From a virus (Duplodnaviria > Heunggongvirae > Uroviricota > Caudoviricetes): a DNA stretch of 27,716 nt. Under the pieces are notes generated by a model that worked only from the letters and a program-made list of their open reading frames with translations, had not been told where the DNA came from and ran no database searches. Below are positions 1-18,985 of the stretch, in pieces (positions within the stretch are counted from its first letter, which is position 1; each line of letters begins with the position of its first letter). A program made the position numbers and the translations under genes. The stretch lies in IMG/VR virus record IMGVR_UViG_2534681772_000017. The stretch is one strand, 5' to 3'.

Positions 1-17
1 AACACGAGCAAACAGAC

Positions 18-46: not shown

Positions 47-172
47 TTCTTAACAGGATGTCGCTTAAGCGAAATCTTAGTTAAGACGCTCCTATTAACA
101 CCACCCAACAAACAAACACTTACCATATAAAACAATTAGTTAATGTAATTTTTAATGCAGCGAATTGCAGTG

Positions 173-1222: not shown

Positions 1223-1251
1223 TACATCACCCCGACCGAGAAGCCATTTTC

Positions 1252-1656: not shown

Positions 1657-1669
1657 TATCGCATCATCC

Positions 1670-2512: not shown

Positions 2513-2625
2513 TTATCAATCACTCAAAATCGATTTACAGGAACTCATTTTCGATTTAAAGTGGCATTCATCGACCAAGATGCACACCACTGCACTACAT
2601 TTCAAACAACAGGAGATAATGCGAT
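2513..2625. promoter_or_regulatory. Divergent immunity-region promoter/operator (pR/pL-like switch)
   Basis: 113-bp AT-rich gap between the divergent cI and apl-like genes. Contains the 10-bp palindrome AAATCGATTT (2527-2536), a second TCGATTT element 21 bp downstream (2551-2557) and a third TCGA core at 2571-2574. Confidence 0.6.
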
Positions 2626-2997
2626 ATGTCAGATGCAAAATCAATCTCGACGCACGACTCGCAAAACTCACAAAATCAAACTGTGCTGTTAGATCCAACG
2701 CAGTTTGATGCCATCGTTACCGCCATGCTTCCAGCTCTGCAGACAATGATTCGCTCCGCAATGTCCGACACCATGACAGTGAAAGACTTCGCCGCTACTC
2801 GCGGTGTTAGCGAGCGTCTGGTCTGGCAATGGCTCGATGAGGGCATCCTTCTCAAAGCTCCGACCAAAGACTTTTCCAACAAAGAGGAAGCCGCTAAACG
2901 AAGCCGAACCCTCGTAAACGTAAAAGCATGGCGCGATAAGCTGACTCAACAAGCGATTGATTGTCGCTACATCGACCAGCGCACCGCTCTTAACTGA
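2626..2997 (+). CDS. Apl/Cox-like small DNA-binding protein (lytic-switch regulator / excisionase-like)
   Basis: First gene of the rightward operon, divergent from cI. AGGAGA SD 9 nt upstream. Contains a probable HTH segment (TVKDFAATRGVSERLVWQWLDEGIL). Function assigned by position and motif, not strong identity. Confidence 0.5.
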   Translation: MSDAKSISTHDSQNSQNQTVLLDPTQFDAIVTAMLPALQTMIRSAMSDTMTVKDFAATRGVSERLVWQWLDEGILLKAPTKDFSNKEEAAKRSRTLVNVKAWRDKLTQQAIDCRYIDQRTALN

Positions 2998-3029
2998 ATT
3001 TGATTATGCAAGTTAGAGGGAATTTAACC

Positions 3030-4838: not shown

Positions 4839-5116
4839 GAAAAACACATCAACTAAAAATTCGGCCTGAGTTTTTTCAGGCTGTCATCAATGGAACAAAA
4901 AAAGCCGAGTTTCGCCGTGCTGACCGTGATTTTGCTGTAGGGGATTTACTTTGCTTAAACGAGTACGGAGCCTGCGTATATGACCCGAAAAAGGTCGGTT
5001 TTACCGGCGCTTTTGTCTACGTGCTGGTGACTCATGTAACTGACCTTAGCGAGTGGGCTCCCGGCTATGTGATGCTAAGCATACAGCGTAGACAAATGGG
5101 GGAACTATGCGGGTAA
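4835..5116 (+). CDS. ASCH/DUF3850-like small protein
   Basis: Start set at MRKTHQLKIRPEFF (ATGA overlap with the previous stop). Motif HQLKI..EFF..V..G.KKAEFRRADRDF.VGD.L fits the DUF3850/ASCH beta-barrel fold, which is predicted to bind RNA. Confidence 0.55.
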   Translation: MRKTHQLKIRPEFFQAVINGTKKAEFRRADRDFAVGDLLCLNEYGACVYDPKKVGFTGAFVYVLVTHVTDLSEWAPGYVMLSIQRRQMGELCG

Positions 5117-7341
5117 GCGTTAACTTTGCTTACCCGTGGAATGCCCCACGGTCGGCAATAGCCAGCCCATACCTTACATATGACCAACAGCATCGCCGCG
5201 ACCGTATGTTCGCGGCTTTGCTGCATGCGAGAAAAGTGCTTTCTCTCCAGCCCGAGTGCGTGCGCTTTGACGTTTATCGCACCGCTGCGGTGCTGGAGCA
5301 AAATCAGGGCAGTCAACGAGCCAATGCCTTTTTAATCAGCTTCTGCAAAAAGGCATTGCCACGTCTTGAACTGGTCGCAAAAAAATACGAGTGCGCGGGT
5401 ATCAACAGCAATGTATCAGCCGCTGTTTTCGATGGTCATTTTGATACCGAGCTTATGCAATATCTGGCGTCACGCATGGTTAATATGGTCGCCAGATATA
5501 ACCGCCTCCCTGACATGTCGCGCGCCGATATTGACCTGCTGGGCGCTGATATTGCTAATTTCATTCGCGCTGAACTGGCAGAGCATGACGACGCTGATTC
5601 TGATTTTGGTGAGCTGGCGACGCTGCATGGTTGGTATATGCGAGCAGGGTTAATTACGCTGCAGTTTGGCATTACTCCTCCGCATTGGGCGGGAACAACC
5701 ACAAAATACTTTGACCCGGATAAAGTTGCCCCGGCTATCGCTCGTATGTTTAACGATGTGTGGTGGCGTGGTCGCCTGCGTCGCATTGCGGCTGCATGGC
5801 GCGAACACCTGCAAATCGCAGTCGGAAATGTCAGCAAAAAACGACACGCATACGCGAGTAAAAACTGCGTGACCGACTGGCGTGAGCAAAAGCGCCGCAC
5901 GCGCGAGTTTCTCAAGGGGCTGGATCTCGAAGACGAAGACGGCAACCGCATCAGCCTGATTGAAAAATACGACGGTTCGGTCGCTAACCCTGCGATACGC
6001 CGCTGCGAGCTGATGACCCGCATCCGTGGGTTTGAAAACATCTGCAATGAGCTCGGTTATGTCGGTGAGTTTTACACCCTGACAGCACCGTCTAAATATC
6101 ACGCCACCACCAAAGCAGGCTACCGTAACAGTAAATGGAACGGAGCCAGCCCGTCGGACACGCAGAGTTATCTAACCGGCCTTTGGGCGCGCATTCGTGC
6201 CAAGTTGCACCGGGAAGAAATCCGCATTTTCGGCATACGTGTTGCCGAGCCTCATCACGACGGGACGCCTCACTGGCATATGCTTATGTTCATGCTGCCG
6301 GAAGACGTCGAGCGTGTGCGCCTCATCATTCGCGATTATGCGTGGGAGGAAGACCATCACGAACTGAGAAGCGATAAAGCCAAAAAGGCACGCTTTCACG
6401 CCGAGGCCATTGACCCGGAAAAAGGCAGCGCTACCGGCTATGTCGCTAAATACATTTCAAAAAATATCGACGGCTATGCTCTCGATGGTGAGACCGATGA
6501 CGAAAGCGGCGAACTACTGAAAGAGACAGCACCCGCCGTTTCAGCATGGGCGGCGCGCTGGCATATCCGTCAGTTTCAGTTTATCGGCGGTGCGCCGGTG
6601 ACGGTCTACCGTGAGTTGCGTCGTCTCGCCGATACCGAGACCGCGCACGGTCTGAGCGTTGAATTTGCCGCTGTCCATGATGCCGCTGACGCCGGTGACT
6701 GGGCTGGTTACGTTAATGCGCAGGGTGGGCCGTTTGTCCGTCGCGATGATTTGCAGGTGCGCACACTGTATGAACCGCGCGCTGATTTTAATCAGTATGG
6801 CGAGGAAACCGTCTGTATCCGTGGTGTTTACGACTCTGTTGTCGGCGCTGGTACCCCTATTTTAACCCGGTTAACGCAGTGGAAAATTGTGCCTAAGCGT
6901 GCCGTTGATTTGGCCGTTGACGTTAAGGGCGCTCCTGCGCCCTCTCGGAGTTCTGTCAATAACTGTACGGGAAGCGAAAGCGATCCACCGATACTGGATT
7001 TAACAAAACCGCTGAGTCGGCGTGAAAGACGAGAGCTGACGAACCGACTAAGGAAGCAAAAGCCAGCAATACGGCGAAAATTCATCCACGGAACGGATGA
7101 GCAAAACGCAGCTATAGCGAAAACTATCGACGAGATACATCTGACAACCGGCATTAATATCAGTCGGGGTGAAGCCCTGCACCTGATGGCCGGTGGTAAA
7201 AGTTGTTTTGATGGCAAATGGCTACGCGGAACGGCCAAAGGAGAAATATTTTCCGCTGCGCCATCGCATGAGGCTAAAGCTCGGAAAATCCTTAATCGTG
7301 TTGCGGCGATGGCTGAAGCATCAAAACCAATACATGATTAA
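5107..7341 (+). CDS. A: Replication initiation endonuclease, P2 gpA type (rolling-circle initiator)
   Basis: 744 aa. N-terminal YPWNAPR (P2 A has YAWNAPRE), HUH motif GTPHWHMLMF and the catalytic tyrosine motif GYVAKYISKNIDGYALDG. SD GGGGGA 4 nt before the ATG. Confidence 0.95.
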   Translation: MRVSVNFAYPWNAPRSAIASPYLTYDQQHRRDRMFAALLHARKVLSLQPECVRFDVYRTAAVLEQNQGSQRANAFLISFCKKALPRLELVAKKYECAGINSNVSAAVFDGHFDTELMQYLASRMVNMVARYNRLPDMSRADIDLLGADIANFIRAELAEHDDADSDFGELATLHGWYMRAGLITLQFGITPPHWAGTTTKYFDPDKVAPAIARMFNDVWWRGRLRRIAAAWREHLQIAVGNVSKKRHAYASKNCVTDWREQKRRTREFLKGLDLEDEDGNRISLIEKYDGSVANPAIRRCELMTRIRGFENICNELGYVGEFYTLTAPSKYHATTKAGYRNSKWNGASPSDTQSYLTGLWARIRAKLHREEIRIFGIRVAEPHHDGTPHWHMLMFMLPEDVERVRLIIRDYAWEEDHHELRSDKAKKARFHAEAIDPEKGSATGYVAKYISKNIDGYALDGETDDESGELLKETAPAVSAWAARWHIRQFQFIGGAPVTVYRELRRLADTETAHGLSVEFAAVHDAADAGDWAGYVNAQGGPFVRRDDLQVRTLYEPRADFNQYGEETVCIRGVYDSVVGAGTPILTRLTQWKIVPKRAVDLAVDVKGAPAPSRSSVNNCTGSESDPPILDLTKPLSRRERRELTNRLRKQKPAIRRKFIHGTDEQNAAIAKTIDEIHLTTGINISRGEALHLMAGGKSCFDGKWLRGTAKGEIFSAAPSHEAKARKILNRVAAMAEASKPIHD

Positions 7342-8352: not shown

Positions 8353-9399
8353 TTATTCCGGGTTGTCGAGGGTGTACTCTTTGAACCTGATGACCTCCAT
8401 ACCGAGCCAGTCGTTTACCTCCCTGAACCTGTCCTGCAGGGGTGACAGCTCGTTACGCACAAATACCTTTGCCACCTTCTCAACGTCACCGAGTGAACCT
8501 ATATTCTCGGGCTTGCCGCCCATGAGCTGGAACGGTACGCGGTGCGCGTCCATCAGGTCGGCGGCGCTGGCTTTCTTGATGTTGAAAAAGTCATCCTTTG
8601 TAGCGACCTCGCTCAGTGGCAAGATTTTGATGCCGTCCGGTTTTGCGCCCGGAGCGTAGAAAAACAGGTTCTTAAAGTTGCCTAGCCCTTTCGAGTTGCG
8701 CATCGCCTCGCGTAGCGATTCGACGTCGGTCGCGCTCTGCGCCGGGTCGGTCACATACATGATGTAACCCGCGTGCGCGCCGTTCTGGTAATACTTGCGG
8801 CGGAACAGCGTAGCGGATTCATTCAGCCAGGCAGAATTAAGCGCGCTGAGATATTCGGGCAGGCCGTAAATCTCCTGATTTATATCGGGCTCCAGCAGGT
8901 GAAACACGGTGTCAGGTGCGAACTCATGCGGCAGAGTGAAGTTTTCCACAAACCAGAAAATCGAATCATCGACCCCGCGCCGGGTGTATTTGGCCGGTGA
9001 GGCCAGCAGCTTGATTAACTGGCCGGTGACGCTGTGGCGCTGCTCAAGAAAGGCGTTGCCGAATACCAGATAGTCGAGCGCAAAGCGGCTGAAATCCTGA
9101 CGGGACAGCAACGGGTGCGGAATGTAGGTGCTCGCTAGCACGTTGCGCTTAACGTAAATCGGTGAGCTGTGATGTACAGCAGAGCGCAGGCTCTTTGCCA
9201 GCCCGGAGAAGCTGACCGGCGGCTCGTACCATTTGCCGTTACTGATGCACTCGACGTAATCCAGAATGTCACGCTTATCGAGTACCGGCACCGGCTCGCC
9301 GAAGGTGAAAGCTGTTGTTTTTGGCGGTGCGCTGGCGGTCAGGTGTTGTGGCTTGCTGGCCTTCTGCGCAGCGGCTTTGCGGGATTTTTGCTTACCCAT
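8353..9399 (-). CDS. Q: Capsid portal protein (P2 gpQ)
   Basis: 348 aa, size and sequence character of P2 Q. Leftward orientation next to cos and sharing an overlap with gene P, as in P2/186. Confidence 0.93.
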   Translation of the reverse strand: MGKQKSRKAAAQKASKPQHLTASAPPKTTAFTFGEPVPVLDKRDILDYVECISNGKWYEPPVSFSGLAKSLRSAVHHSSPIYVKRNVLASTYIPHPLLSRQDFSRFALDYLVFGNAFLEQRHSVTGQLIKLLASPAKYTRRGVDDSIFWFVENFTLPHEFAPDTVFHLLEPDINQEIYGLPEYLSALNSAWLNESATLFRRKYYQNGAHAGYIMYVTDPAQSATDVESLREAMRNSKGLGNFKNLFFYAPGAKPDGIKILPLSEVATKDDFFNIKKASAADLMDAHRVPFQLMGGKPENIGSLGDVEKVAKVFVRNELSPLQDRFREVNDWLGMEVIRFKEYTLDNPE

Positions 9400-11168
9400 T
9401 AGTTGAACTCCAGAATAGATTTAGGCTGCATTCCGCTACCGGCGGAAAGCGGTTCGTTTAACAGGGCGTGCATGGTCGCCCATGCGATATCGGCGTGACT
9501 GGCTTCCTCGGTGCGGCTGGCCTCGTAGGTGGCGCTGCGCCCGCTGCTGGTCATGGTTTTGCGGATGGACATAAACGACTGCGTGACGTCTGTCGCCCCG
9601 GCGTCGTATTCCAGACAGCCACGGCGAATGGTGTCTTTTGCCTTGAGCACCATCGCGGTTTTCATTTCAGGTGTGTAACGGATGCCGCGTGCCGCCGGGT
9701 AGAATGAGCGCACCAACTGATAAACGCCGAGGCCGAGGCCGGTCGCGTCAATGCCGATGTATTCAACGTTATATTTCTCGGTCAGCTTGCGGATCCCCTC
9801 TGCCTGTGCGGCAAAGTCCATGCCTTTCCACTGATGACGCTCCAGCATGCGGAACTTGCCACCCGAGACCACCGGCGGCGCGAGTACGACGCACCCGGCG
9901 CTGTCGCCGGTGTGTGACGGGTCGTAGCCAATCCAGACAGGACGCGAGCCGAACGGATGGTCGGCGAACGGGGCGAAGTCCTCCCATTCTTCCATCACGT
10001 CGACCATGCAGCGCTGCAGCTCCTCGAACGGGAATACCGACGCTTTATCGTCGACAAATTCGCACATAAACAGGTTTTTAAAGTCCTCATCACTGTTTTC
10101 GCGTTTGAGCTGGTCGAGGTCGAACAGGGTGCAACCACCGGCAAGGGCATCCTCAATGGTGACAATCTGCCGCCACTGGCCATCGTCGCAGAGCTGGCCA
10201 CCGGCGAGCGCGCTGTGACTGATGTCGATTTCGATGCGGTCGGAAATCCGGCTGCGCCCCTTGTTGAACAGCTCGCCAGACCAGAAGGGGTAAGCGCCAT
10301 GCGCCAGCGTGGAAGGTGTCGAAAAGTATGTTGAGCGCAGGTGCTTCTGCGAGGCCATGCCCGACGCGACTTTGCGCAGCTTCTGAAAATTCGGGATCCA
10401 GAATATTTCATCGACATACAGGTCGCCGTTATGGCTCTGCGCGGTGTTGGAATTGGTACCGAGAAAAATCAGCTTTGCGCCGTTGTTGCCGATGACAATC
10501 GGGTCGCCGGTCAGGTCGACGTCGACCAGACGCGCAAACTGGATGATGTACTCGCGGAACACGTAAGCCTGCGTTTTACTGGCCGACAAAAATATCTGGT
10601 TGTGGCCGGTCTTGAGCGCGCGCAGCAGCGCCTCGCGGGAGAAATAGAACGTCGCGCCAATCTGGCGGGATTTGAGAATATCGCGAATACGGTGCGCCAG
10701 CCCTGCGCGGTACCACTGCAACTGGTACTCGAAAGACTGGTCGAAAAATAGTTCCTCCAGTTTCTCGATAGCCTCGTCGCTGAAAAAGTTCTTTTTCGGC
10801 TTTTTACGCTCGCCTTTGTTGCGGTTGGCGACATTGGGGTTTAGGTCGACCTCGTTGCCGGTCTGGCTGTAGCGGTTAACGCGCGCCAGTCGCTCAATCT
10901 GCCGCCCGAGCAGGTCAATTTCTTTGAAATCGCCGCCTGACTTTTGCGGCTTGGCGATGAGCTGAATCAGGCGCGCCTCAAGGCTGCTTTCGACGCGGGA
11001 AATCGGTGCGATACCGTCCCAGCCGTCGCGCTGCTTCCAGCTCTGCACGGTCGGGCGCTTGACCTGCAGCATTTCGGCAATCTGTGGCACGGAAAAGCCC
11101 TGCCAGTAAAGCAGCGATGCCTGCCGTCGCGGGTCATGCAACAAGGTTGTATCGGTGGAGATGGTCAT
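9399..11168 (-). CDS. P: Terminase large (ATPase/nuclease) subunit (P2 gpP)
   Basis: 589 aa (P2 P is about 590). Adjacent to and co-oriented with Q, divergent from the O-N-M operon. Confidence 0.93.
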   Translation of the reverse strand: MTISTDTTLLHDPRRQASLLYWQGFSVPQIAEMLQVKRPTVQSWKQRDGWDGIAPISRVESSLEARLIQLIAKPQKSGGDFKEIDLLGRQIERLARVNRYSQTGNEVDLNPNVANRNKGERKKPKKNFFSDEAIEKLEELFFDQSFEYQLQWYRAGLAHRIRDILKSRQIGATFYFSREALLRALKTGHNQIFLSASKTQAYVFREYIIQFARLVDVDLTGDPIVIGNNGAKLIFLGTNSNTAQSHNGDLYVDEIFWIPNFQKLRKVASGMASQKHLRSTYFSTPSTLAHGAYPFWSGELFNKGRSRISDRIEIDISHSALAGGQLCDDGQWRQIVTIEDALAGGCTLFDLDQLKRENSDEDFKNLFMCEFVDDKASVFPFEELQRCMVDVMEEWEDFAPFADHPFGSRPVWIGYDPSHTGDSAGCVVLAPPVVSGGKFRMLERHQWKGMDFAAQAEGIRKLTEKYNVEYIGIDATGLGLGVYQLVRSFYPAARGIRYTPEMKTAMVLKAKDTIRRGCLEYDAGATDVTQSFMSIRKTMTSSGRSATYEASRTEEASHADIAWATMHALLNEPLSAGSGMQPKSILEFN

Positions 11169-11333
11169 TGATGCCTCGCCGTAGTGGATTCAGGGCAAGG
11201 CTACTTAATGGCCGTCAGTGATTCGCTAAGGTGCTGTTGTGTGGGCGGTTATCCAGTCGTCATTGGTGGTCTGGCGTGTCCCGAGTCTGGAAACTGGCGG
11301 TGACCAGTAACCCCAACCTCAGGACTCCTGACA

Positions 11334-12188
11334 ATGGCAAAAAAAGTCTCAAAGTTCTTTCGCATCGGCGTCGAGGGTGATACCTGCGACGGGCGCATTA
11401 TCAGCGCCGGCGATATTCAGGAAATGGCCGAAACCTACGACCCGCGCGTCTACGGTTGCCGTATCAACCTTGAACACCTGCGCGGCCTGCTGCCCGATGG
11501 CGTATTCAAGCGTTATGGCGATGTGGTCGAACTGAAAGCCGAGAAGATTGACGACGATTCTGCGCTTAACGGCAAATGGGCGTTGTTCGCTAAAATCACC
11601 CCGACCGATGACCTTATTGCGATGAATAAAGCCGCGCAGAAGGTCTACACCTCAATGGAAATCCAGCCGAATTTTGCCAATACCGGCAAATGCTACCTCG
11701 TCGGCCTTGCGGTCACCGATGACCCGGCGAGCCTCGGCACTGAATACCTCGAATTCTGCCGCAACGCGAAGCACAACCCTCTGCAGCGCTTTAAGGCCAA
11801 CCCTGAAAACGTCTTTTCCGCTGCCACGCTGGCCGAGCTGGAATTTGAAGACGTTCCCGACACGGTGCTCAACAGCCTGGCTGATAAGGTGAAAGCCATT
11901 TTCAGTCGTAAGCAGGTCAGCGACGATGCGCGCCTGAATGATGTGCATGAAGCGGTGACCACCGTCAGCGAGCATGTGCAGACCAATCTGACCGCGCAGG
12001 ATAAGCGCATTTCCGATATGGAAACCGCGTTTGCCACTTTCAAACAGGAACTGACCGGCAAGGTTGACGAAACCAGCCAGGCATTTTCCGCCCTGAAAAC
12101 CACCCTCGACAAAACCGAAAGTTTCAGCCAGCCGCGACGCACAAAAGCCAGCGGCGGTGGCGGTGATGAGCTGCTGACCGACTGCTGA
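11334..12188 (+). CDS. O: Capsid scaffolding protein (P2 gpO)
   Basis: 284 aa, identical in length to P2 O. First gene of the rightward capsid operon. Confidence 0.9.
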   Translation: MAKKVSKFFRIGVEGDTCDGRIISAGDIQEMAETYDPRVYGCRINLEHLRGLLPDGVFKRYGDVVELKAEKIDDDSALNGKWALFAKITPTDDLIAMNKAAQKVYTSMEIQPNFANTGKCYLVGLAVTDDPASLGTEYLEFCRNAKHNPLQRFKANPENVFSAATLAELEFEDVPDTVLNSLADKVKAIFSRKQVSDDARLNDVHEAVTTVSEHVQTNLTAQDKRISDMETAFATFKQELTGKVDETSQAFSALKTTLDKTESFSQPRRTKASGGGGDELLTDC

Positions 12189-12263
12189 TAAACCGCAGAC
12201 CGAAACCGGGCGGTAACCCCGCCCGATGCTGTGACTAACCGATTAATTCAAACAGGAAATACT

Positions 12264-13331
12264 ATGCGTCAGGAAACCCGTTTTAAGTTCAATGCCTATC
12301 TGACCCAGCTCGCCAAACTGAACGGCATCAGCGTTGATGACGTCAGCAAAAAATTCACCGTCGAGCCGTCCGTCACGCAAACGCTGATGAACACCGTGCA
12401 GGCGTCATCTGCATTTTTGCAGATGATTAACATTCTGCCGGTCGCAGAAATGAAGGGCGAGAAAATCGGCGTCGGTGTGACCGGCACCATCGCCAGCACG
12501 ACCGACACCTCGGGTGACAAAGAGCGCCAGACCGCAGATTTCACCGCGCTTGAGTCCAACAAGTACGAGTGCAATCAGATTAACTTTGACTTCCACCTGA
12601 CCTATAAACGCCTCGACCTGTGGGCGCGTTTTCAGGACTTCCAGCGCCGCATCCGCGACGCCATTGTCCAGCGTCAGGCACTGGATTTCATCATGGCCGG
12701 TTTCAACGGTACCACCCGCGCTGATACCTCAGACCGCAGCAAAAACCCGATGCTGCAGGATGTGGCCGTCGGCTGGCTGCAGAAGTACCGCAACGAAGCT
12801 CCTGCCCGCGTGATGAGCAACATCACCGACGCTGACGGTAAGGTCGTTTCGGCGGTGATTCGTGTCGGTAAGAACGGCGACTATGAGAACCTCGACGCGC
12901 TGGTGATGGATGGTACCAACACCCTGATTGACGAGATTTATCAGGATGACCCGAAACTCGTTGCCATCGTTGGCCGTAAGCTGCTGGCTGACAAATATTT
13001 CCCGCTGGTCAACAAACAGCAGGAAAACACCGAGTCGCTCGCGGCGGATATCATCATCAGCCAGAAGCGCATCGGCAACCTGCCAGCCGTGCGCGTGCCG
13101 TACTTCCCGGCGAATGCGGTGTTCGTGACCACGCTGGAAAACCTCTCTATCTACTTCATGGATGAGAGCCACCGCCGCAGCATTGATGAGAACCCGAAAA
13201 AAGACCGCGTGGAAAACTACGAGTCGATGAACATCGACTATGTGGTCGAGGCGTATGCCGCCGGGTGCCTGCTGGAAAACATCACCCTCGGCGATTTCAC
13301 CGCACCTGCAGCACCGGAAAGCGGAGCCTAA
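12264..13331 (+). CDS. N: Major capsid protein (P2 gpN)
   Basis: Start set at MRQETRFKFNAY (SD AGGA), which matches the P2 N N-terminus as I recall it. 355 aa. Confidence 0.95.
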   Translation: MRQETRFKFNAYLTQLAKLNGISVDDVSKKFTVEPSVTQTLMNTVQASSAFLQMINILPVAEMKGEKIGVGVTGTIASTTDTSGDKERQTADFTALESNKYECNQINFDFHLTYKRLDLWARFQDFQRRIRDAIVQRQALDFIMAGFNGTTRADTSDRSKNPMLQDVAVGWLQKYRNEAPARVMSNITDADGKVVSAVIRVGKNGDYENLDALVMDGTNTLIDEIYQDDPKLVAIVGRKLLADKYFPLVNKQQENTESLAADIIISQKRIGNLPAVRVPYFPANAVFVTTLENLSIYFMDESHRRSIDENPKKDRVENYESMNIDYVVEAYAAGCLLENITLGDFTAPAAPESGA

Positions 13332-13334
13332 ACC

Positions 13335-14084
13335 ATGACGAGCCCCGCACAGCGTCACATGATGCGGGTCTCGGCCTCTCAAGCCGCGCAGCGGGAACAA
13401 GCCCCGCTGCGCCATGCAACCGCCTACGAGCAGATGCTGGTAAAGCTGGCCGATGACCGTCGCACGTTAAAAACCATCCGTTCAAACGAACTGAAAGCCG
13501 CGAAAAAGCGCGAGCTGTTGCCGTTCTATGCGCCGTGGGTCGCCGGTGTGCTGGCTGATGGCCGTGGTGCGCAGGATGACATTGTCATGACCGTCATGCT
13601 GTGGCGTCTCGATGCCGGTGATATCGCTGGCGCGCTGGAAATTGCGCCCTACGCGCTGAAATACGGCCTCACCTCTAACCATCGCCGAACCACGCCTTAC
13701 ATGCTGGTTGAGGAGGTGGCACTTGCCGCGCTGCGCCTGCGCGATGCCGGTGAGCCTGTCGACCTCGCATTACTGCTGACCACCCTCAGCCTGACCGACG
13801 GTGCTGACGTTCCCGATATGGTGCGCGCTCGTCTGCATAAGGTGACTGGCCTGACCCTGCGCGATGCCGGTCAGGACGCCGAAGCGCTGGCGCAGTTTCA
13901 GCGCGCAATGCAGCTCGACCGCAATGCCGGTGTGCGCAAAGAGATTGAGCGACTGGAGCGGGCATTGAAGCCTAAGCCCGATGCCGCGCCCCGTAAAACG
14001 ACTAAACCGCGCACGCGCAAACCTGCCACCAGACCGGCGGCAAAGCGCGGGCGTCCACCAAAGGCGGTAAAAACCGCCGGTTAA
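13335..14084 (+). CDS. M: Terminase small (endonuclease) subunit (P2 gpM)
   Basis: 249 aa with a basic Lys/Arg/Pro-rich C-terminal tail. Position after N. Confidence 0.9.
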   Translation: MTSPAQRHMMRVSASQAAQREQAPLRHATAYEQMLVKLADDRRTLKTIRSNELKAAKKRELLPFYAPWVAGVLADGRGAQDDIVMTVMLWRLDAGDIAGALEIAPYALKYGLTSNHRRTTPYMLVEEVALAALRLRDAGEPVDLALLLTTLSLTDGADVPDMVRARLHKVTGLTLRDAGQDAEALAQFQRAMQLDRNAGVRKEIERLERALKPKPDAAPRKTTKPRTRKPATRPAAKRGRPPKAVKTAG

Positions 14085-14177
14085 CTGAACGCTCCCCGAG
14101 CCGGGCGGCACGCCGGTCAAAGCGGGTTTTGACCCTGACGGCGACCGGCGTCCACCGCCCAACCTAATGAGGTTGTC

Positions 14178-14687
14178 ATGACGACAGTAATACTGAATCA
14201 GCCCGACGAACCGCAGGACGTACCGGGCGTGGTGATTCCAGCACCGGAGACGGGCGACGCAGTGATTAAAAACACGTTCTTTTTCCCTGATGTGGATCCG
14301 AAGCGGGTGCGCGAGCTGATGCGCCTTGAGCAGACGGTTTCCGATGCGCGCCTGCGCAACGCCATCAAGACCGGCATGGCGGAAACCAATGCAGAGCTTT
14401 ACGACTACCGGCTGCGCCAGATTGCCGCCGGGTTTAAGACACTGGCCGACGTGCCTGACGCCGAGGAAATCGACGGCGAGAATGTGCGTGTTTTCCACTA
14501 CCTGAGCGCCGTGACGGCGATGGCGACAGCCACCCTGTATGAGCGTTATCGCGGGGTTGAGGCCACCGGCAAGGGTGACAAAAAAGCCGACAGCGTCGAA
14601 ACCACCATTGATGACCTGTGGCGGGATATGCGCTGGTCGGTCTCGCGCCTGCAGGATAAGCCGCGCTGCATCGTGGGCCAGCTCTGA
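14178..14687 (+). CDS. L: Head completion/stabilisation protein (P2 gpL)
   Basis: 169 aa, the same length as P2 L. SD GAGG upstream. Confidence 0.9.
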   Translation: MTTVILNQPDEPQDVPGVVIPAPETGDAVIKNTFFFPDVDPKRVRELMRLEQTVSDARLRNAIKTGMAETNAELYDYRLRQIAAGFKTLADVPDAEEIDGENVRVFHYLSAVTAMATATLYERYRGVEATGKGDKKADSVETTIDDLWRDMRWSVSRLQDKPRCIVGQL

Positions 14688-14890
14688 TGAAAGTCTACGC
14701 GATGCAGGGCGATACCCTCGACGCGCTTTGCGTCCGGTATTACGGGCGCACTGAGGGCGTGGTCGAGACGGTGCTGCAGGCTAATCCCGGCCTGTCTGAG
14801 CTGGGCGTCATTCTGCCGCATGGCACGGCGATTGACCTGCCAGACGTTGAAACATCACCCACGGCGGAGACCCTGAACCTATGGGACTGA
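14687..14890 (+). CDS. X: Tail protein X (P2 gpX, LysM-like)
   Basis: 67 aa (MKVYAMQGDTLDALCVRYYG...). Start overlaps the L stop (TGATG). Confidence 0.88.
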   Translation: MKVYAMQGDTLDALCVRYYGRTEGVVETVLQANPGLSELGVILPHGTAIDLPDVETSPTAETLNLWD

Positions 14891-15102
14891 GTATGGAAAA
14901 AATCACCACGTTTATCGCCTACTGGCTGGCCGTTGGGCTGGCGTATTTCGGGGCAATGTCGCCCGAAAAACTGGCGCTGTATGTGGGTAGTCTGTGCGCC
15001 ATTTTTACGGCGGCGGTGAATTTCTGGTACCGGCGCAAAACCTTTCGTTACCTGACCGAAATGGGAATCGACAAAGGGGTGACCCGTGAGCTCAATCGTT
15101 AA
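14881..15102 (+). CDS. Holin, probable class II / pinholin type
   Basis: 73 aa with two predicted TM segments (ITTFIAYWLAVGLAYFGAM; LALYVGSLCAIFTAAVNFWY) and a charged C-terminus. Immediately upstream of a SAR endolysin. The start could instead be the ATG at 14893. Confidence 0.6.
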   Translation: MGLSMEKITTFIAYWLAVGLAYFGAMSPEKLALYVGSLCAIFTAAVNFWYRRKTFRYLTEMGIDKGVTRELNR

Positions 15103-15595
15103 ACGTTGCAGTGTGGCCGCAGTGCTGGCGCTGGCGGCACTGATGCCTGATTTTCGTCTGCTGAATACCTCGCCTGACGGTCTGGCGCTGATTGCCGACC
15201 TCGAAGGGTGTCGCCTGACACCTTACCAGTGCAGCGCGGGCGTGTGGACGTCAGGCATCGGCCACACTGCCGGGGTGGTACCGAAACGGGATATCACCGA
15301 GCGCGAAGCGGCGGCAAATCTGGTCGCAGACGTGCTGAACACCGAGCGCCGTCTCGCGGTCTGCGTGCCGGTCACCATGCCGCAGTCGGTTTACGACGCG
15401 CTCGTCAGTTTCTCTTTTAACGTCGGCACCGGCGCGGCCTGTCGCTCTACGCTGGTCTCTTACATCAAGCGTCATCAGTGGTGGCAGGCATGCGACCAGC
15501 TCACCCGTTGGGTGTACGTCAACGGGGAGCGTAGTACCGGCCTCGAAAATCGACGCCAGCGTGAGCGTACTTACTGCCTGAAGGGGGTGAAATGA
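15086..15595 (+). CDS. SAR endolysin, P1 Lyz-like lysozyme with cysteine cage
   Basis: 169 aa. N-terminal weakly hydrophobic SAR segment (MSSIVKRCSVAAVLALAALMPDF) containing one Cys. Motif LEGCRLTPYQCSAGVWTSGIGHT parallels P1 Lyz AEGCRRDPYMCPAGVWTDGIGNT. C-terminal RRQRERTYCLKG resembles lambdoid and P21-type lysozymes. Confidence 0.9.
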   Translation: MSSIVKRCSVAAVLALAALMPDFRLLNTSPDGLALIADLEGCRLTPYQCSAGVWTSGIGHTAGVVPKRDITEREAAANLVADVLNTERRLAVCVPVTMPQSVYDALVSFSFNVGTGAACRSTLVSYIKRHQWWQACDQLTRWVYVNGERSTGLENRRQRERTYCLKGVK

Positions 15596-16005
15596 AAGTG
15601 TTAGCCGTGCTGTTAGTGTTGTCCGTGCTCGGGCTGCTGTGGTTGCGCCATGAGAACGGCAATTTAACCCGCTCCTTTGAGACAGCAAACCGCGTCGCGA
15701 GCGAACAAAAGACGACGATTGGCATGCTGAAAAATCAGCTCAGTGTTGCCGGTCAGATTGCCAGACGTAATGAATCCGCGCAGGTGGTTCTGCGCGAACA
15801 GCTCGCAAAGGCTAGCGAGGAAGCCAGCCGCCGCGAGCAGACGATAACGAGGTTACTTAATGAAAATGAAGCCTTTCGCCGCTGGTATAACGCTGCTTTG
15901 CCTGATGTTGTGCGTCGGCTGCACACCCGCACCGCCTGTGCCAGCGCCGGTGATTGTGGTCAGCGGATGCCCGAGGGTGAGCCTTTGCCCGATGCCGGGA
16001 AGTGA
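15592..16005 (+). CDS. Inner-membrane spanin (Rz / LysB-like)
   Basis: 137 aa with an N-terminal TM helix (VLAVLLVLSVLGLLWL), then a charged, coiled-coil-like periplasmic region. Directly follows the endolysin. Confidence 0.7.
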   Translation: MKVLAVLLVLSVLGLLWLRHENGNLTRSFETANRVASEQKTTIGMLKNQLSVAGQIARRNESAQVVLREQLAKASEEASRREQTITRLLNENEAFRRWYNAALPDVVRRLHTRTACASAGDCGQRMPEGEPLPDAGK

Positions 16006-16150
16006 CCCGAAAACCAATGGCGACCTGAGCGCGGATATCCGCCGTCTTGAGGGCGCGCTGACCGCCTGCGCGCTACAGGTCAAAACCGTCAAACACTGTC
16101 AGGATGAACTCGATGCAGAAGCACAAAAGCCTGCGCAAGGCGCTGATTAA
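15860..16150 (+). CDS. Outer-membrane lipoprotein spanin (Rz1 / LysC-like), overlapped architecture
   Basis: 96-aa ORF in another frame that starts inside the Rz gene and runs past its end. Lipoprotein-like signal (MKMKPFAAGITLLCLMLCVGC) followed by a Pro-rich segment. Confidence 0.6.
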   Translation: MKMKPFAAGITLLCLMLCVGCTPAPPVPAPVIVVSGCPRVSLCPMPGSDPKTNGDLSADIRRLEGALTACALQVKTVKHCQDELDAEAQKPAQGAD

Positions 16151-16580
16151 CGCCGTGCCGCAGCTCCGAAATAACCCCGATATGCTGCGCCTGTTTGCCG
16201 ACAACGGCCATACCGATTCCCGGCTGGCGAGCTCGCTGTCGTTTGAAAAGGTGTACGTGCTTAACGTGGTGGTGACCGACTTCACCGGCGACCTCGATTT
16301 GATATTCGTGCCGGTGCAGGCGTGGCTGCGTGAACATCAGCCAGACATTATGACCACCGACGACGGCCGGGAAAAAGGATTCACCTGGATTATTGATATC
16401 AATAACGACGATTCGCTTGATATCAGTATCAGCCTGAGGCTCACCGAGCGCACGCTCGTCAAAGAGGTCGACGGCGCGCTGCACGTCAGCTATGCCCCTG
16501 AGCCGCCGCTGCCTGAGCCGGTGACGCGCCCGGTCGAGCTGTACGTTAACGGCGAACTGGTGAGTAAGTGGGATGAGTGA
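16113..16580 (+). CDS. R: Tail completion protein (P2 gpR)
   Basis: Start set at MQKHKSLRKAL (SD AGGA), matching the P2 R N-terminus (MLKPDSLRRAL) in pattern. C-terminal PVELYVNGELVSKWDE resembles the end of P2 R. Confidence 0.85.
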   Translation: MQKHKSLRKALINAVPQLRNNPDMLRLFADNGHTDSRLASSLSFEKVYVLNVVVTDFTGDLDLIFVPVQAWLREHQPDIMTTDDGREKGFTWIIDINNDDSLDISISLRLTERTLVKEVDGALHVSYAPEPPLPEPVTRPVELYVNGELVSKWDE

Positions 16581-17022
16581 ATTAACCGCGCTGCAGGAAC
16601 GCCTTGCCGGTCTGATTGCCAGCCTGTCACCGGCGGCACGTCGGCAAATGGCGGCTGAGGTTGCGAAAAAGTTGCGTACCAGTCAGCAACAGCGCATCAA
16701 GCGCCAGCAGGCACCCGACGGCACCCCGTATGCCGCGCGTAAGCGCCAGCCGGTGCGGAGCAAGAAAGGTCGGATTAAACGTGAAATGTTCGCCAAACTG
16801 CGCACCAACCGCTTTATGAAAGCTAAAGGCAGCGACAGTGCGGCGGTGGTGGAGTTTACCGGCAAGGTGCAGCGCATGGCGCGGGTGCATCAGTACGGGC
16901 TCAAAGACCGGCCAAACCGCAACAGCCGGGATGTGCAGTACGATGCCCGCCCGTTGCTCGGTTTCACCCGCGACGATGAGCAGATGATTGAAGACGTCAT
17001 TATCAGGCACCTCGGCAAATAA
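16573..17022 (+). CDS. S: Tail completion protein (P2 gpS)
   Basis: 149 aa. Start overlaps the R stop (ATGAGTGA). Conserved position. Confidence 0.85.
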   Translation: MSELTALQERLAGLIASLSPAARRQMAAEVAKKLRTSQQQRIKRQQAPDGTPYAARKRQPVRSKKGRIKREMFAKLRTNRFMKAKGSDSAAVVEFTGKVQRMARVHQYGLKDRPNRNSRDVQYDARPLLGFTRDDEQMIEDVIIRHLGK

Positions 17023-17090
17023 ATATTGTGTGAACCACCACCGGAGCCGCGCGAATTGGCGCGACTCCAGACCAGAGGCATCCTTGCACT

Positions 17091-17726
17091 ATGAATACGT
17101 TATCCACGATACAGGAGCTCGCACGCGCGATTCGCAACCTCATCCGCTCAGGTGTGGTGACTGAGGTTGATACCGTGCAGGGGCTGTGCCGCGTACAAAG
17201 CGGCGGGATCCAGACAACATGGCTGAACTGGCTGACCACCCGCGCCGGTCGTTCGCGGACGTGGTGGGCTCCCTCGGTCGGTGAGCAGGTTCTGCTGCTG
17301 GCAATCGGTGGTGAGCTTGATACCGCTTTCGTGCTGCCGGGTATTTTCTCCGACGATAACCCCGCTCCGTCGGCCTCGGCGGATGCGTGGCATGTGGCTT
17401 TCCCTGATGGTGCGGTCATTGAGTACGAGCCCGAAACCGGCGCGCTGACGGTCAGCGGCATAAAAACGGCCGACGTGACGGCATCGGAGTCCATCACCGC
17501 AACCGTGCCGCTGGTACTGGTGAAAGCCTCGACCAGTATCACCCTCGACACCCCGGAGGTGATTTGCACCAATAAGCTGACGACGGCGACGCTTGAGGTG
17601 CAGAAAGGCGGCAAGATGAGCGGCAATATCGAACATTCCGGCGGGTCACTGTCGTCTAATGGCAAGGTGCTCCACACCCATAAACACCCGGGCGACAGCG
17701 GCGGGCAAACGGGGGCTCCGTTATGA
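17091..17726 (+). CDS. V: Baseplate assembly / spike protein (P2 gpV)
   Basis: 211 aa, identical in length to P2 V. Followed by W with an overlapping stop/start. Confidence 0.9.
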   Translation: MNTLSTIQELARAIRNLIRSGVVTEVDTVQGLCRVQSGGIQTTWLNWLTTRAGRSRTWWAPSVGEQVLLLAIGGELDTAFVLPGIFSDDNPAPSASADAWHVAFPDGAVIEYEPETGALTVSGIKTADVTASESITATVPLVLVKASTSITLDTPEVICTNKLTTATLEVQKGGKMSGNIEHSGGSLSSNGKVLHTHKHPGDSGGQTGAPL

Positions 17727-18070
17727 CGGCGCGCTATCAGGGGATGAACCGAAATACCGGCCTCGGCATCAGCGACACTGAGCACATCAGTCAGAGCATG
17801 CGCGACATACTGCTGACGCCGGTCGGCTCGCGGGTGATGCGCCGTGAATATGGCTCGCTTCTGTCGGCGCTGATTGATATGCCGCAAAACCCGGCGCTCA
17901 GGCTGCAAATTATGGTGGCGTGCTATTCGGCTATCCAGAAGTGGGAGCCGCGCATCCGGCTTACCGCCATCAGCTTTGAGACCGGCGACGCTGGCGAAAT
18001 GTATGTCGATATTACCGGGATGCGTACCGATACCGGTGCGTCAGTTTCAACCACTGTTTCACTGAGTTAA
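17723..18070 (+). CDS. W: Baseplate wedge protein (P2 gpW, gp25-like)
   Basis: 115 aa, the same length as P2 W. ATGA overlap with V. Confidence 0.9.
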   Translation: MTARYQGMNRNTGLGISDTEHISQSMRDILLTPVGSRVMRREYGSLLSALIDMPQNPALRLQIMVACYSAIQKWEPRIRLTAISFETGDAGEMYVDITGMRTDTGASVSTTVSLS

Positions 18071-18076
18071 ATCACT

Positions 18077-18985
18077 ATGGCAACCGTTGACCTGAGTCAG
18101 TTACCCGTTCCCGACGTGGTTGAGGAACTGGACTATGAAACCATCCTTGCGGAACGCATTGCGACGCTGATTTCGCTCTATCCCGAAGACCAGCAGGAGT
18201 CCATTGCCCGGACGCTCGCGCTTGAGTCAGAGCCGATTGTTAAGCTGCTGCAGGAAAACGCCTACCGTGAAGTTATCTGGCGTCAGCGGGTGAACGAAGC
18301 CGCACAGGCGGTGACGCTGGCCTACTCCGCCGGTAACGACCTCGACGTCGTGGCCGGGAACAACAATACCGAGCGCCTGACCATCACCCCGGCGGATGAC
18401 ACCACCATTCCGCCGACACCTGCCGTTATGGAATCCGATACTGACCTGCGACTGCGCACGCAACAGGCGTTTGAGGGATTGAGCGTGGCGGGTCCGGTCG
18501 GGGCATATGAGTATCACGGTCGCAGCGCCGACGGGCGGGTCGCTGACGTCTCGGTCGCAAGTCCGTCGCCAGCCTGCGTGACGATTACCGTGCTATCGCG
18601 CGAGGGTGACGGCACTGCTAGTCCTGAACTACTGGCGATTGTTGATAAAGCGCTGAATGCCGAAGATGTGCGCCCGGTGGCCGACCGGGTTACCGTCCAG
18701 TCAGCCGAGATTGTGCCGTACCAGATTGACGCGACGCTCTACGTTTACCCCGGCCCCGAATCTGAACCCATCAGGCAGGCATCAGAGCAGAAGCTGCAGA
18801 GCTACATCAGCGCGCAGCACCGCCTCGGGCGTGATATCCGTCTGTCGGCCATTTACGCGGCGCTGCATGTTGAGGGGGTGCAGCGTGTCGAGCTGGCATC
18901 ACCTCAGACCGATATTGTGCTGAGTAAGTCGCAGGCGTCGAACTGCACCGAGTACCAGATAACTATCGGGGGCTCGGATGAGTGA
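18077..18985 (+). CDS. J: Baseplate wedge protein (P2 gpJ)
   Basis: 302 aa, identical in length to P2 J. Conserved order V-W-J-I. Confidence 0.9.
   Translation: MATVDLSQLPVPDVVEELDYETILAERIATLISLYPEDQQESIARTLALESEPIVKLLQENAYREVIWRQRVNEAAQAVTLAYSAGNDLDVVAGNNNTERLTITPADDTTIPPTPAVMESDTDLRLRTQQAFEGLSVAGPVGAYEYHGRSADGRVADVSVASPSPACVTITVLSREGDGTASPELLAIVDKALNAEDVRPVADRVTVQSAEIVPYQIDATLYVYPGPESEPIRQASEQKLQSYISAQHRLGRDIRLSAIYAALHVEGVQRVELASPQTDIVLSKSQASNCTEYQITIGGSDE

Follow-up and report, generated by a model that had tools for sequence, protein, structure and literature searches.

The DNA at positions 14881-16150 of a 27,716-nucleotide tailed-phage sequence (IMG/VR record IMGVR_UViG_2534681772_000017; the whole stretch analysed is here called the window) carries genes for host lysis, and raises the question of what kind of lysis system they make up and how it relates to the P2-type late operon in which it lies. 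The initial annotation, made from the sequence alone, had described a pinholin, a caged endolysin of the P1 Lyz type with a SAR N-terminus and a pair of spanins, together regarded as a P1/P21-style system. Reading of the open reading frames places four co-oriented and overlapping lysis genes on the + strand, encoding a holin, an endolysin, LysB and LysC (Table 1), and the family profile matches, all far stronger than chance would give, bear out all four gene identities as first proposed. The genes present, their order, their overlaps and the families to which they belong are observed directly, and the cassette is a standard lysis module of a temperate phage of the 186/P2 type, situated in the late operon between the tail genes X and R. 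The phage from which it derives is most probably temperate and 186-like (Eganvirus, Peduoviridae).

Table 1. Features of the lysis region and its flanks (positions in the window).
Feature	Position	Strand	Basis and remarks
Tail/baseplate gene X, left flank	14687..14890	+	PF05489 at 2e-30; its end overlaps the start of the longer holin form
Swapped holin and endolysin segment, non-homologous to 186	14861..15608	+	blastn of the window against 186
Class II (two-TMD) holin	14881..15102	+	73 aa from ATG 14881, 69 aa from ATG 14893; PHROG20 at 1.6e-22
Holin TMD1, ITTFIAYWLAVGLAYFGAM	14902..14958	+	Hydropathy scan; mean KD 1.54; G+A+S+T 7/17
Holin TMD2, LALYVGSLCAIFTAAVNFWY	14971..15030	+	Hydropathy scan; followed by basic tail (RRK...)
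GH24 (T4-lysozyme-type) endolysin, SAR-like N-terminus	15086..15595	+	GTG start, 169 aa; PF00959 at 2.6e-39
Endolysin SAR-like N-terminus, MSSIVKR-CSVAAVLALAALM-P	15086..15148	+	Sequence reading; Cys8 codon 15107-15109
Endolysin active-site motif, E40-G-C42-RLTPYQ-C49-SAGVW-T55	15203..15250	+	In register with P1 Lyz E42/C44/C51/T57
lysB, i-spanin	15592..16005	+	137 aa; TIGR03495 159.5 bits, cut-off 92.75; PHROG89 1.2e-54
lysC, o-spanin	15860..16150	+	96 aa; NF038368 128.5 bits, cut-off 27; PF23793 7.9e-14
Tail completion gene R, right flank	16104..16580	+	PF06891 at 4.7e-42

The cassette would be transcribed within a long late operon equivalent to the O operon of P2, in the order O N M L X - lysis - R S. 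A scan of positions 11000-17300 gave neither a sigma-70-like promoter nor a + strand terminator, which is consistent with a single late transcript, and neither a scan of the whole window for Rfam families nor a tRNA scan gave a match. Four ORFs antisense to the cassette, on the - strand at 14546-14821, 15251-15688, 15853-16092 and 16089-16484, had no PHROG match and were set aside as chance ORFs in GC-rich DNA. Gene R may start at ATG 16104 or at ATG 16113, the latter being the start annotated in relatives (Midge, 186).

Over positions 14600-16600 the window shares 96-98% nucleotide identity with Klebsiella phage RCIP0057 (OR532851), the Yersinia vB_YpM 186-type phages, Erwinia phage EtG and E. 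coli phage Midge (PV287706), whose published annotation lists a class II holin, a SAR endolysin, an i-spanin and an o-spanin (PMC12697156). With annotated and published copies of near-identical sequence already available, the cassette is an ordinary one and its gene set holds nothing new. Its value for discovery is small, this being the lysis module expected of common enterobacterial P2/186-like prophages, and the practical value of the analysis lies in annotation hygiene.

The holin and the size of its lesion

Of the two candidate start codons of the holin, ATG 14893 has the better-spaced Shine-Dalgarno sequence and is the likelier. A conserved M-G-L at the upstream start was weighed as support for the longer form and then discounted, since the end of gene X (...L-W-D-stop) overlaps it and dictates these codons. 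The 69-aa form, which is 100% identical to the Midge product named 'holin class II', has hydrophobic stretches at residues 4-20 and 27-43 on a hydropathy scan, and beyond them its C-terminus is basic. The interval between the two start codons encodes no Lys, and hence there is no dual-start antiholin of the lambda/21 type; the LysA-like gene of Midge and Erwinia phage EtG is also missing from the window. Many homologs of this holin are misnamed 'primosomal protein' in the databases.

The holin scores 28.0 bits against the HP1 holin family PF16080, just under the gathering threshold of 28.8, and representatives of clusters near-identical to it have a precomputed match to PF16080 and are named 'HP1 family phage holin' in NCBI/UniRef. 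Its score against the S21 family PF04971 is 14.0 bits where the threshold is 26 (E 0.051). A comparison of the profile of the holin family with that of S21/EssD by hhalign nevertheless gave a probability of 84% (E 7.5e-6, 31% identity) and covered both TMDs, and in TMD2 a GS-L...T...N-x-[WY] pattern aligns with that of S21/EssD. BLASTP of the holin gave no match to the 186 holin or to P1 LydD, a proven pinholin, and to EssD it matched only over the N-terminal 17 residues. On these matches the holin is probably a member of the HP1 holin family, with only a remote relation to S21.

Like S21 and EssD, the holin is of the two-TMD class II topology, has M-[DE]-K at its N-terminus and is basic at its C-terminal end. 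The differences lie in TMD1, which is 6 residues shorter than that of S21, aromatic-rich instead of Gly/Ser-rich and more hydrophobic (for EssD, an S21-type holin, the same scan gives a mean KD of 0.48 and G+A+S+T of 11/17; compare Table 1), and in the dual-start motif with its Lys, which S21 has and the window's holin lacks. The hydrophobicity/ΔG scale is not decisive on whether TMD1 is SAR-like, because the SAR domains of P1 Lyz and R21, which are proven, also come out on it as good TMDs.

Genes for SAR endolysins typically adjoin pinholin genes (PMC9025707; PMC6116005), and the mark of a pinholin, as applied to S21 and P1 LydD, is that its holes are too small for a cytoplasmic endolysin, so that it does not allow lysis with lambda R (PMC6116005, PMC9025707). 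Since P1 Lyz also functions with canonical holins (PMC9025707), a pinholin cannot be deduced from the presence of a SAR endolysin. It is possible, if less probable, that the holin is of the canonical large-hole type and acts as P1 LydA does with Lyz, any membrane lesion being enough to release and activate the endolysin. The S21 family score below threshold, a TMD1 that is as hydrophobic as TMD2 and without the Gly/Ser-rich character of its S21 counterpart, and the lack of BLAST similarity to LydD would all suit such a holin, as would the ability of SAR endolysins to cooperate with canonical holins (PMC6116005, PMC9025707). Against it stand the typical pinholin context of a protein with two TMDs in only 69 aa encoded directly upstream of a SAR endolysin (PMC9025707), the profile-profile similarity to S21/EssD, and the N-terminal M-E-K, which mirrors the M-D-K of S21 68. 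We consider it somewhat more likely that the holin makes small pinholes than that it makes large holes. The initial annotation was thus right in seeing a small two-TMD holin upstream of a SAR endolysin, while the name pinholin goes beyond what its PF04971 score and the composition of its TMD1 support.

A further and rather doubtful reading is that the HP1-family holin is a mechanistically distinct small holin paired with a SAR endolysin whose anchor core, at 13 residues, is unusually short. Such a holin could be a pinholin that is triggered without externalisation of TMD1, or a two-TMD holin that makes large holes. This reading draws on the aromatic and fairly hydrophobic TMD1, the lack of a Lys-bearing dual start and the lack of a LysA-type partner. 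As far as the literature was searched, no experimentally characterised HP1-family holin was found. Abundant as it is, the cassette family would be a convenient set in which to test whether class II holins of the HP1 type act as pinholins and whether the disulfide switch of P1 is general.

Regulatory class of the endolysin

The GTG start of the endolysin is preceded by AAGGGG 6 nt upstream, and the protein matches PF00959 with 134.9 bits (threshold 22.3) over profile positions 2-125 of 125. Identity is 97.6% with the 'SAR-endolysin' of RCIP0057 and 94% with the 'SAR endolysin' of Midge. BLASTP against the P endolysin of 186 gave no homology. Among proteins of solved structure the best matches are P1 Lyz (1XJT, 1.6e-22) and R21 (3HDE, 4.7e-21). 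An AlphaFold2 model had a mean pLDDT of 46 and was too poor for use, the alignment being shallow (29 homologs, all at least 80% identical).

P1 Lyz (1XJT/1XJU) is the prototype of SAR endolysins that are activated by disulfide isomerisation, the bond changing from C44-C51 to C13-C44 upon release from the membrane. Its catalytic triad, reportedly assigned by Xu et al. 2005, is Glu-8 aa-Cys-5 aa-Thr, a Cys standing where T4L has Asp. The residues first noted in the window, two Cys within EGCRLTPYQC and one in the SAR segment, are present as E40, C42, C49 and C8, the last being the single Cys of the N-terminal hydrophobic segment, with no other before residue 42. The GTG that includes Cys8 is the correct start of this gene.

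The likeness to P1 Lyz extends to the GH24 fold family, the hydrophobic N-terminus with a single Cys and the E-G-C-x6-C-x5-T motif, and both proteins have Cys in the place of the catalytic Asp. The cysteines thus align with C13, C44 and C51 of P1 Lyz as had been supposed, with the reservation that the register of C8 and C13 is only approximate: the SAR Cys lies 32 residues from the catalytic Glu here and 29 in P1, and the two are 3 residues out of register in an ungapped BLAST alignment, whereas MAFFT aligns them after opening a gap. The endolysin differs from P1 Lyz in that the two share only ~31% identity, in its shorter hydrophobic core (13 aa), and in lacking an 11-residue insertion that P1 and HP1 carry after the FNxG motif.

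In the full-length homologs, sampled as 112 cluster representatives, C49 is invariant and C8 and C42 are each found in 111 of the 112. The IVKRC motif is kept in the endolysins of Fels-2 and YenM201 at 63-65% identity, and the three-Cys pattern is found again in the HP1 endolysin at ~30%. Conservation alone is no proof of a regulatory role for these Cys, as four others (C93, C119, C136 and C164) are equally conserved.

It is conceivable, and in our judgement unlikely, that the N-terminus is a cleavable Sec signal peptide or that the enzyme is under conformational control like R21, the Cys being structural and no redox switch being present. The hydrophobic core C8-M20, composed of Ala, Leu and Val and flanked by K6R7 and P21D22, has the length of a signal-peptide h-region, R21 is nearly as close a relative as P1 Lyz, and the equal conservation of the four further Cys could be read in the same sense. 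A cleaved signal peptide would, on the other hand, need no conserved Cys, and inspection by eye revealed no clear A-x-A site with a polar c-region. The SAR Cys and the Cys at Glu+2 and Glu+9 are kept together in 111/112 clusters as well as in HP1, Fels-2 and P1, and this set is missing from R21 and RrrD, which have Val and Asp at the positions of C42 and C49 and no Cys in the SAR segment, so that the window's endolysin does not share the R21-type triad. The Cys and triad pattern accordingly points to an endolysin of the P1 Lyz regulatory type. Its core of 13 residues is shorter than those of P1 Lyz and R21.

The term caged, which had been attached to this endolysin, is better kept for another class. 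Lyz103 of Erwinia phage ERA103 belongs to the same lysozyme family and is likewise a SAR endolysin, reportedly regulated by a thiol in its SAR domain. Its 'caging', according to what Kuty et al. 2010 are said to have reported, is by a disulfide that flanks the catalytic Glu, and there is no catalytic Cys; the P1 mechanism is one in which a catalytic Cys is blocked and the block is relieved by disulfide isomerisation. Because the window's endolysin has no Cys between C8 and E40 and has Cys49 at the catalytic position, as in the P1 subclass, the term does not fit.

Exchange of the holin and endolysin genes

When the window is compared with 186 by blastn, the matches in this region cover positions 13100-14860 and 15609-18091 only, with sharp breakpoints at 14860 and 15609. 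In place of the intervening segment 186 has 826 bp encoding an unrelated holin of the Y type and an endolysin of the K type. On sequence comparison only this segment of ~750 bp, with the holin and endolysin, differs from 186, and the spanins are the native LysB and LysC of 186/P2, with 92% amino acid identity to 186 for LysB and 94% for LysC (against 186 Orf28). Relative to 186, PsP3 and P2, the holin and endolysin pair alone is a different allele, one that is common in the Peduoviridae; pairs of this type are found also in HP1, Fels-2 and Yersinia and Klebsiella phages.

It is very unlikely that a P2-type backbone recently took up the pair from a phage like P1 or from a lambdoid one like phage 21. 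The sharp breakpoints and the standing of P1 Lyz as the closest solved structure would be expected from such an event, yet identity to P1 Lyz is only ~31%, similar to that with R21, whereas it reaches 63-67% with Peduoviridae endolysins (Fels-2, SopEPhi, ENT90 and Yersinia and Klebsiella P2-like phages). HP1 also belongs to the Peduoviridae, and it has the same holin family, which is named after it, and the same Cys pattern. The matches to HP1 and other Peduoviridae indicate exchange between P2-family phages.

The mosaicism pointed out in the initial annotation is therefore real in so far as the holin and endolysin are swapped relative to 186. It is ordinary allelic mosaicism and no notable import from P1 or P21, given how widespread the pair is in the Peduoviridae and how low its identity to P1 Lyz. 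Nor does the description of the whole as a P1/P21-style lysis system hold, since the spanins are native and the extension of lysC into R is the P2 arrangement.

Spanins, proposed course of lysis and related cassettes

LysB has an N-terminal TMD at residues ~3-18, in a segment (VLAVLLVLSVLGLLWL) with a mean KD of 2.49, and two periplasmic Cys, Cys116 and Cys122. The lysC gene lies in the +1 frame relative to lysB, overlaps it by 146 nt and continues for another 145 nt, so that it overlaps gene R by 47 nt (ATG 16104) or 38 nt (ATG 16113). Spanin genes are classed as 'overlapped' or 'embedded' by their arrangement (PMC6139136). Both words had been used for this pair; overlapped is the fitting one, and the extension into R was seen correctly, whereas embedded does not apply to a gene that runs on past lysB.

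The N-terminus of LysC consists of MKMK, a hydrophobic stretch of 16 aa and C-V-G-C21, with a signal peptide at residues 1-20. The lipobox is L-C-V-G-C, and Cys21 (codon 15920-15922) is the predicted site of lipidation, which leaves a mature part of 76 aa with 10 Pro. Because of the Cys at position -3 the strict consensus [LVI][ASTVI][GAS]C is unmatched; such deviations occur among o-spanins (Kongari et al., PMC6139136). The column of Cys21 is conserved in six homologs, including P2, 186 and PsP3, and Fels-2 and YenM201 have a canonical LSGC. A conserved lipobox Cys, on which the identification of this ORF as an o-spanin had been made to depend, is thus present in a non-canonical setting. A second candidate, VSGC at Cys37, was rejected, the corresponding residues being VNGC in 186 and PNAC in P2.

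That the o-spanin should instead be a 52-aa product starting at 15992, as GenBank has it for Midge (159 nt) and for RCIP0057, is scarcely credible, since this product (MPGSDPKTNG...) has neither signal peptide nor lipobox, the NF038368 match already begins at residue 4 of the 96-aa ORF, the N-terminal 44 residues of LysC are conserved as protein in P2, Fels-2 and YenM201, proteins of ~96 aa are annotated in 186, PsP3, P2 and Fels-2 alike, and the PsP3 entry in SpaninDB has 96 aa with a mature part of 76 aa. The 96-aa ORF with its predicted lipidated Cys21 is the correct o-spanin, and the 52-aa entries for Midge and RCIP0057 are wrong.

With the endolysin read as a P1 Lyz-type enzyme, the cassette is very probably explained by a four-step course of lysis, in which export, tethering, release and disulfide exchange are proposed from homologous systems, namely P1 Lyz, phage 21 and the lambda/P2 spanins. 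The endolysin would be exported by Sec and held at the inner membrane by its N-terminal segment, which is short and rich in Ala and Leu, and while it is tethered a C42-C49 disulfide would block the catalytic Cys49 of the E40/C49/T55 triad. The two-TMD HP1-family holin would meanwhile accumulate and, at a set time, permeabilise and depolarise the membrane. Depolarisation would free the SAR segment, and the thiol of Cys8 could then attack the C42-C49 bond, forming C8-C42 and freeing Cys49, upon which the endolysin would refold and degrade the murein. Finally, a complex of LysB in the inner membrane and LysC, as an outer-membrane lipoprotein lipidated at Cys21, would disrupt the outer membrane.

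The spanins of P2, 186 and PsP3 share with those of the window the gene lengths, the 146-nt overlap, an LC[VA]GC lipobox and the run into R, with no notable difference; for PsP3, SpaninDB gives the same 414/291/146-nt geometry. Midge, RCIP0057, the Yersinia vB_YpM phages and EtG have an identical 69-aa holin, an endolysin that is 92-98% identical and the same gene order. Midge and EtG differ from the window, RCIP0057 and 186 in an extra 432-nt LysA-like gene, a 'putative antiholin', between the endolysin gene and lysB, and their endolysin departs from that of the window from residue ~147 to the C-terminus.

In Fels-2 (STM2716/STM2715) and HP1 (hol/lys), as in the window, a small two-TMD holin gene stands directly upstream of a GH24 endolysin gene within a P2-type late cluster, and the endolysins have the SAR Cys and the EGC-x6-C pattern; the Fels-2 record already notes the similarity to P1 Lyz. 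Fels-2 differs in having two extra small ORFs before lysB, and in HP1 the cassette follows the genes for tail sheath and tube and not X. The context in P1 is different again, lyz lying in its own operon with the pinholin gene lydD downstream of it and the holin genes lydA and lydC elsewhere (PMC9025707).

Layout and genomic setting of the lysis cassette

ORF calls place four close-packed genes on the plus strand between tail genes X and R, at 14881-16150. The coordinates and description of the cassette in the initial annotation were confirmed, all four genes being as it had stated. The endolysin gene begins inside the holin gene, with a 17-nt overlap, and the inner ATG of the holin gene has better Shine-Dalgarno spacing than the one at 14881.

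Features of the window. Family search identified the genes of the lysis region only; the remaining genes were assigned by their size and position and by how the best-matching phages are annotated.
Feature	Position	Strand	Remarks
Integrase-sized ORF	173-1222	-	Size, position, best-matching phages' annotation
Replication gene	5107-7341		Size, position, best-matching phages' annotation
Portal and terminase-sized ORFs	8353-11168	-	Size, position, best-matching phages' annotation
Tail gene X	14687-14890	+	PF05489
Holin	14881-15102	+	Small membrane protein, 73 aa; inner ATG 14893 gives 69 aa
Endolysin	15086-15595	+	169-aa lysozyme; GTG start, AAGGGG 6 nt upstream
lysB	15592-16005	+	ATGA overlap with endolysin stop
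lysC	15860-16150	+	+1 frame of lysB
Tail-completion gene R	16104 or 16113-16580	+	PF06891
389-aa ORF	ends 27716		At window end, after late genes

Neither a sigma-70-like promoter nor a plus-strand terminator-like site was found over 11000-17300, which is consistent with one long late transcript similar to the O operon of the P2 annotation. Antisense ORFs across the cassette had no family match, and Rfam and tRNA scans of the window gave none. A G+C-rich hairpin inside lysC (GGCGCGC-N9-GCGCGCT, 16051-16075; about -14 kcal/mol for a stretch of 41 nt) coincides in position with the 'putative transcription attenuator; O operon' of the P2 record. Its stem differs in sequence from that of P2, GCTGGCAC-GCT-GTGCCAGC, and it has no trailing U-run.

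The window amounts to an essentially complete 186-like phage genome; Klebsiella phage RCIP0057 (27.8 kb) matches 93% of it at 94.7% identity. Positions 1-3029, matched by RCIP0057 and Escherichia phage Midge, form a variable, probably early or immunity-side region; matches to Erwinia phage EtG and the Yersinia 186-type phages begin at 3029. RCIP0057, whose endolysin carries the annotation 'SAR-endolysin', matches the 2-kb cassette region at 97.8% identity, and fourteen Yersinia 186-type phages, Midge and EtG match it at about 96%. The Midge holin is 100% identical to the 69-aa form. A 'P1/P2-like' cassette whose SAR (signal-anchor-release) endolysin resembles P1 Lyz has also been described in a Klebsiella phage paper (PMC9902359). 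The cassette is already known and ordinary, and its interest is therefore low.

The endolysin and its cysteines

The endolysin is assigned to the P1 subclass of SAR endolysins. It matches PF00959 (2.6e-39). Among solved structures its closest relative is P1 Lyz (1XJT, 1.6e-22), followed by R21 (3HDE, 4.7e-21). In its sequence, MSSIVKR-C8-SVAAVLALAALM-PDF...L-E40-G-C42-RLTPYQ-C49-SAGVW-T55, the P1-Lyz-like cysteine arrangement proposed initially was recovered by HMMER, BLAST and MAFFT, which place E40/C42/C49/T55 on E42/C44/C51/T57 of P1 Lyz. The equivalence of Cys8 to P1 C13 was upheld in part: MAFFT aligns the two after opening a gap, but ungapped BLAST leaves a 3-residue offset, and the N-terminal Cys lies 32 residues from the Glu versus 29 in P1. 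Cys8 thus matches C13 in kind, as the single Cys of the hydrophobic N-terminal segment, with an approximate register only.

Among 112 full-length cluster representatives from a 5.8-billion-protein search, the SAR Cys is kept in 111, the Cys at Glu+2 in 111 and that at Glu+9 in all. Fels-2 and Yersinia phage YenM201, at 63-65% identity, and Haemophilus phage HP1, at about 30%, share the three-Cys pattern, whereas RrrD/R21 has none of the three and retains the catalytic Asp. At E <= 1e-10 the homologous endolysins fall into 844 protein clusters, spread over Escherichia, Citrobacter, Klebsiella, Enterobacter, Salmonella, Edwardsiella, Yersinia and others. In Fels-2 (L007, 1525) the endolysin is annotated from a start that cuts off the N-terminal MNPSIVKRC with the SAR cysteine, an annotation error. 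Four further cysteines, C93, C119, C136 and C164 (15362-15364, 15440-15442, 15491-15493 and 15575-15577), are invariant in 112/112 full-length homologs; C93 and C119 are confined to this subfamily, while C136 and C164 are also kept in P1 Lyz, HP1 Lys and R21/RrrD, and may form a structural disulfide.

In P1 Lyz the catalytic Cys is reportedly blocked by a disulfide and relieved through isomerisation (Xu et al. 2005). The term 'caged', applied initially to the endolysin, is said to denote the Lyz103 subclass, with a disulfide flanking the catalytic Glu (Kuty et al. 2010); no Cys lies locally before E40, so the endolysin falls outside that subclass and was misnamed. Its hydrophobic core from KR to PD is just 13 residues, the uncharged stretches of P1 Lyz and R21 being longer, and on sequence alone the N-terminus could therefore conceivably be a cleavable signal peptide, which would however leave the conservation of Cys8 unexplained. 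A disulfide switch in this endolysin is the probable reading.

The holin and the spanins

The holin matches PHROG20 'holin' (1.6e-22); against the Pfam HP1 holin family PF16080 it scores 28.0 bits, slightly below the gathering threshold of 28.8. Its two hydrophobic segments, at residues 4-20 and 27-43 in the 69-aa form, and the basic tail behind them make it a class II holin. NCBI and UniRef call many database homologs 'primosomal protein', for example in the Enterobacter cloacae complex, Lelliottia, Salmonella and Citrobacter; evidently an HP1-family holin was misannotated and the error propagated.

A small two-segment holin is encoded upstream of the endolysin, as described initially, but 'pinholin' is unproven, the S21 family PF04971 scoring 14 bits only. 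When profiles of 21 holin-family members and 21 S21/EssD-type holins were compared by hhalign, both transmembrane segments (TMDs) aligned (84% probability, E 7.5e-6, 31% identity), indicating a credible but remote relationship short of family membership. TMD1 of S21 is 6 residues longer; that of the window holin is aromatic-rich (F, Y, W, Y, F), with 7/17 Gly/Ala/Ser/Thr compared to 11/17 in EssD. Between the two candidate starts of the window holin (M-G-L-S-M-E-K) there is no Lys, in contrast to the dual starts of lambda S107 and S21 71 and to M-G-L-K-M in YenM201. As the overlapping 3′ end of X fixes the M-G-L codons, their conservation is uninformative on use of the upstream start. No similarity was found to the proven P1 pinholin LydD. 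A pinholin is favoured by the genomic context, as the gene adjoins a SAR-endolysin gene and such genes usually adjoin pinholin genes (PMC9025707), but P1 Lyz functions with canonical holins too (PMC6116005, PMC9025707). We lean only slightly towards a pinholin, forming small rather than large holes.

LysB matches TIGR03495 (159.5 bits, cut-off 92.75) and LysC NF038368 (128.5 bits, cut-off 27); they are 92% and 94% identical to the phage 186 spanins. As proposed, the o-spanin gene lies in another frame of the i-spanin gene and runs past it into R: lysC shares 146 nt with lysB and extends 145 nt beyond it, the last 38-47 nt within R. P2 lysC also enters R, by 38 nt, so this extension is native to the P2 family, whose arrangement is the prototype for the 'overlapped' class (PMC6139136). 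PsP3 in SpaninDB has identical geometry (414 nt, 291 nt, 146-nt overlap, 96-aa precursor, 76-aa mature).

Cys21 of LysC is the predicted lipidated residue. The claimed lipobox has this column conserved, as LC[VA]GC in the window, 186, PsP3 and P2 and canonical LSGC in Fels-2 and YenM201, but its residue -3 is Cys, off the consensus [LVI][ASTVI][GAS]C; such deviations occur among o-spanins (PMC6139136). VSGC at Cys37, for all its strict-looking form, is ruled out as lipobox, the same site being VNGC in 186 and PNAC in P2; Cys37 more probably belongs among the conserved periplasmic cysteines. Two periplasmic Cys, 116 and 122, occur in LysB. In Midge (L001, 3324-3482) and RCIP0057 (L002, 2893-3051) the o-spanin is annotated as a 52-aa ORF, equivalent to window 15992-16150, with neither signal peptide nor lipobox, an annotation error, and the YenM201 LysC ORF (L008, about 2274) is left unannotated.

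Proposed lysis and relation to known systems

Gene content, family membership and residue equivalence were established directly; the course of lysis is proposed by homology. Sec would export the endolysin, which would stay tethered to the inner membrane, its catalytic Cys49 blocked by a C42-C49 disulfide. Holin triggering would depolarise the membrane and release the SAR segment, upon which C8 would attack the disulfide and free C49; the active endolysin would degrade the murein, and LysB-LysC would then disrupt the outer membrane. The cassette is very probably a lysis module of this kind. The initial interpretation was largely right, with 'pinholin', 'caged' and the origin of the module to be corrected.

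The window is colinear with phage 186 at 91-93% DNA identity except at 14861-15608; in 186 this interval is taken up by 826 bp of unrelated sequence, for a Y-type holin (PF04550) and a K-type endolysin. The proposed mosaicism is thus real as a swap of an approximately 750-bp holin and endolysin allele, with junctions in the final 30 nt of X and the initial 17 nt of lysB, but an origin in P1 or phage 21 was overstated. Midge and EtG carry a 432-nt LysA-like gene for a four-TMD 'putative antiholin' (NF038378 family) between endolysin and lysB (L001, 2427-2947; window counterpart 15526-15615), and their endolysin C-terminus diverges from that of the window. Neither the window nor RCIP0057 nor 186 has this gene, and a lysis-timing gene is thus present in some close relatives and absent from others.

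Import of the module from P1 or phage 21 is rejected, since the endolysin is about 31% identical to P1 Lyz versus 63-67% to its counterparts in numerous other Peduoviridae (among them Fels-2, SopEPhi, SEN8, ENT90 and Yersinia and Klebsiella P2-like phages) and HP1 has the same pair. The Fels-2 record notes '2 transmembrane domains... putative holin' and 'similarity to Lyz [P1]', and HP1, itself in the Peduoviridae and namesake of the holin family, shares both the holin-endolysin pairing and the Cys pattern of the window.
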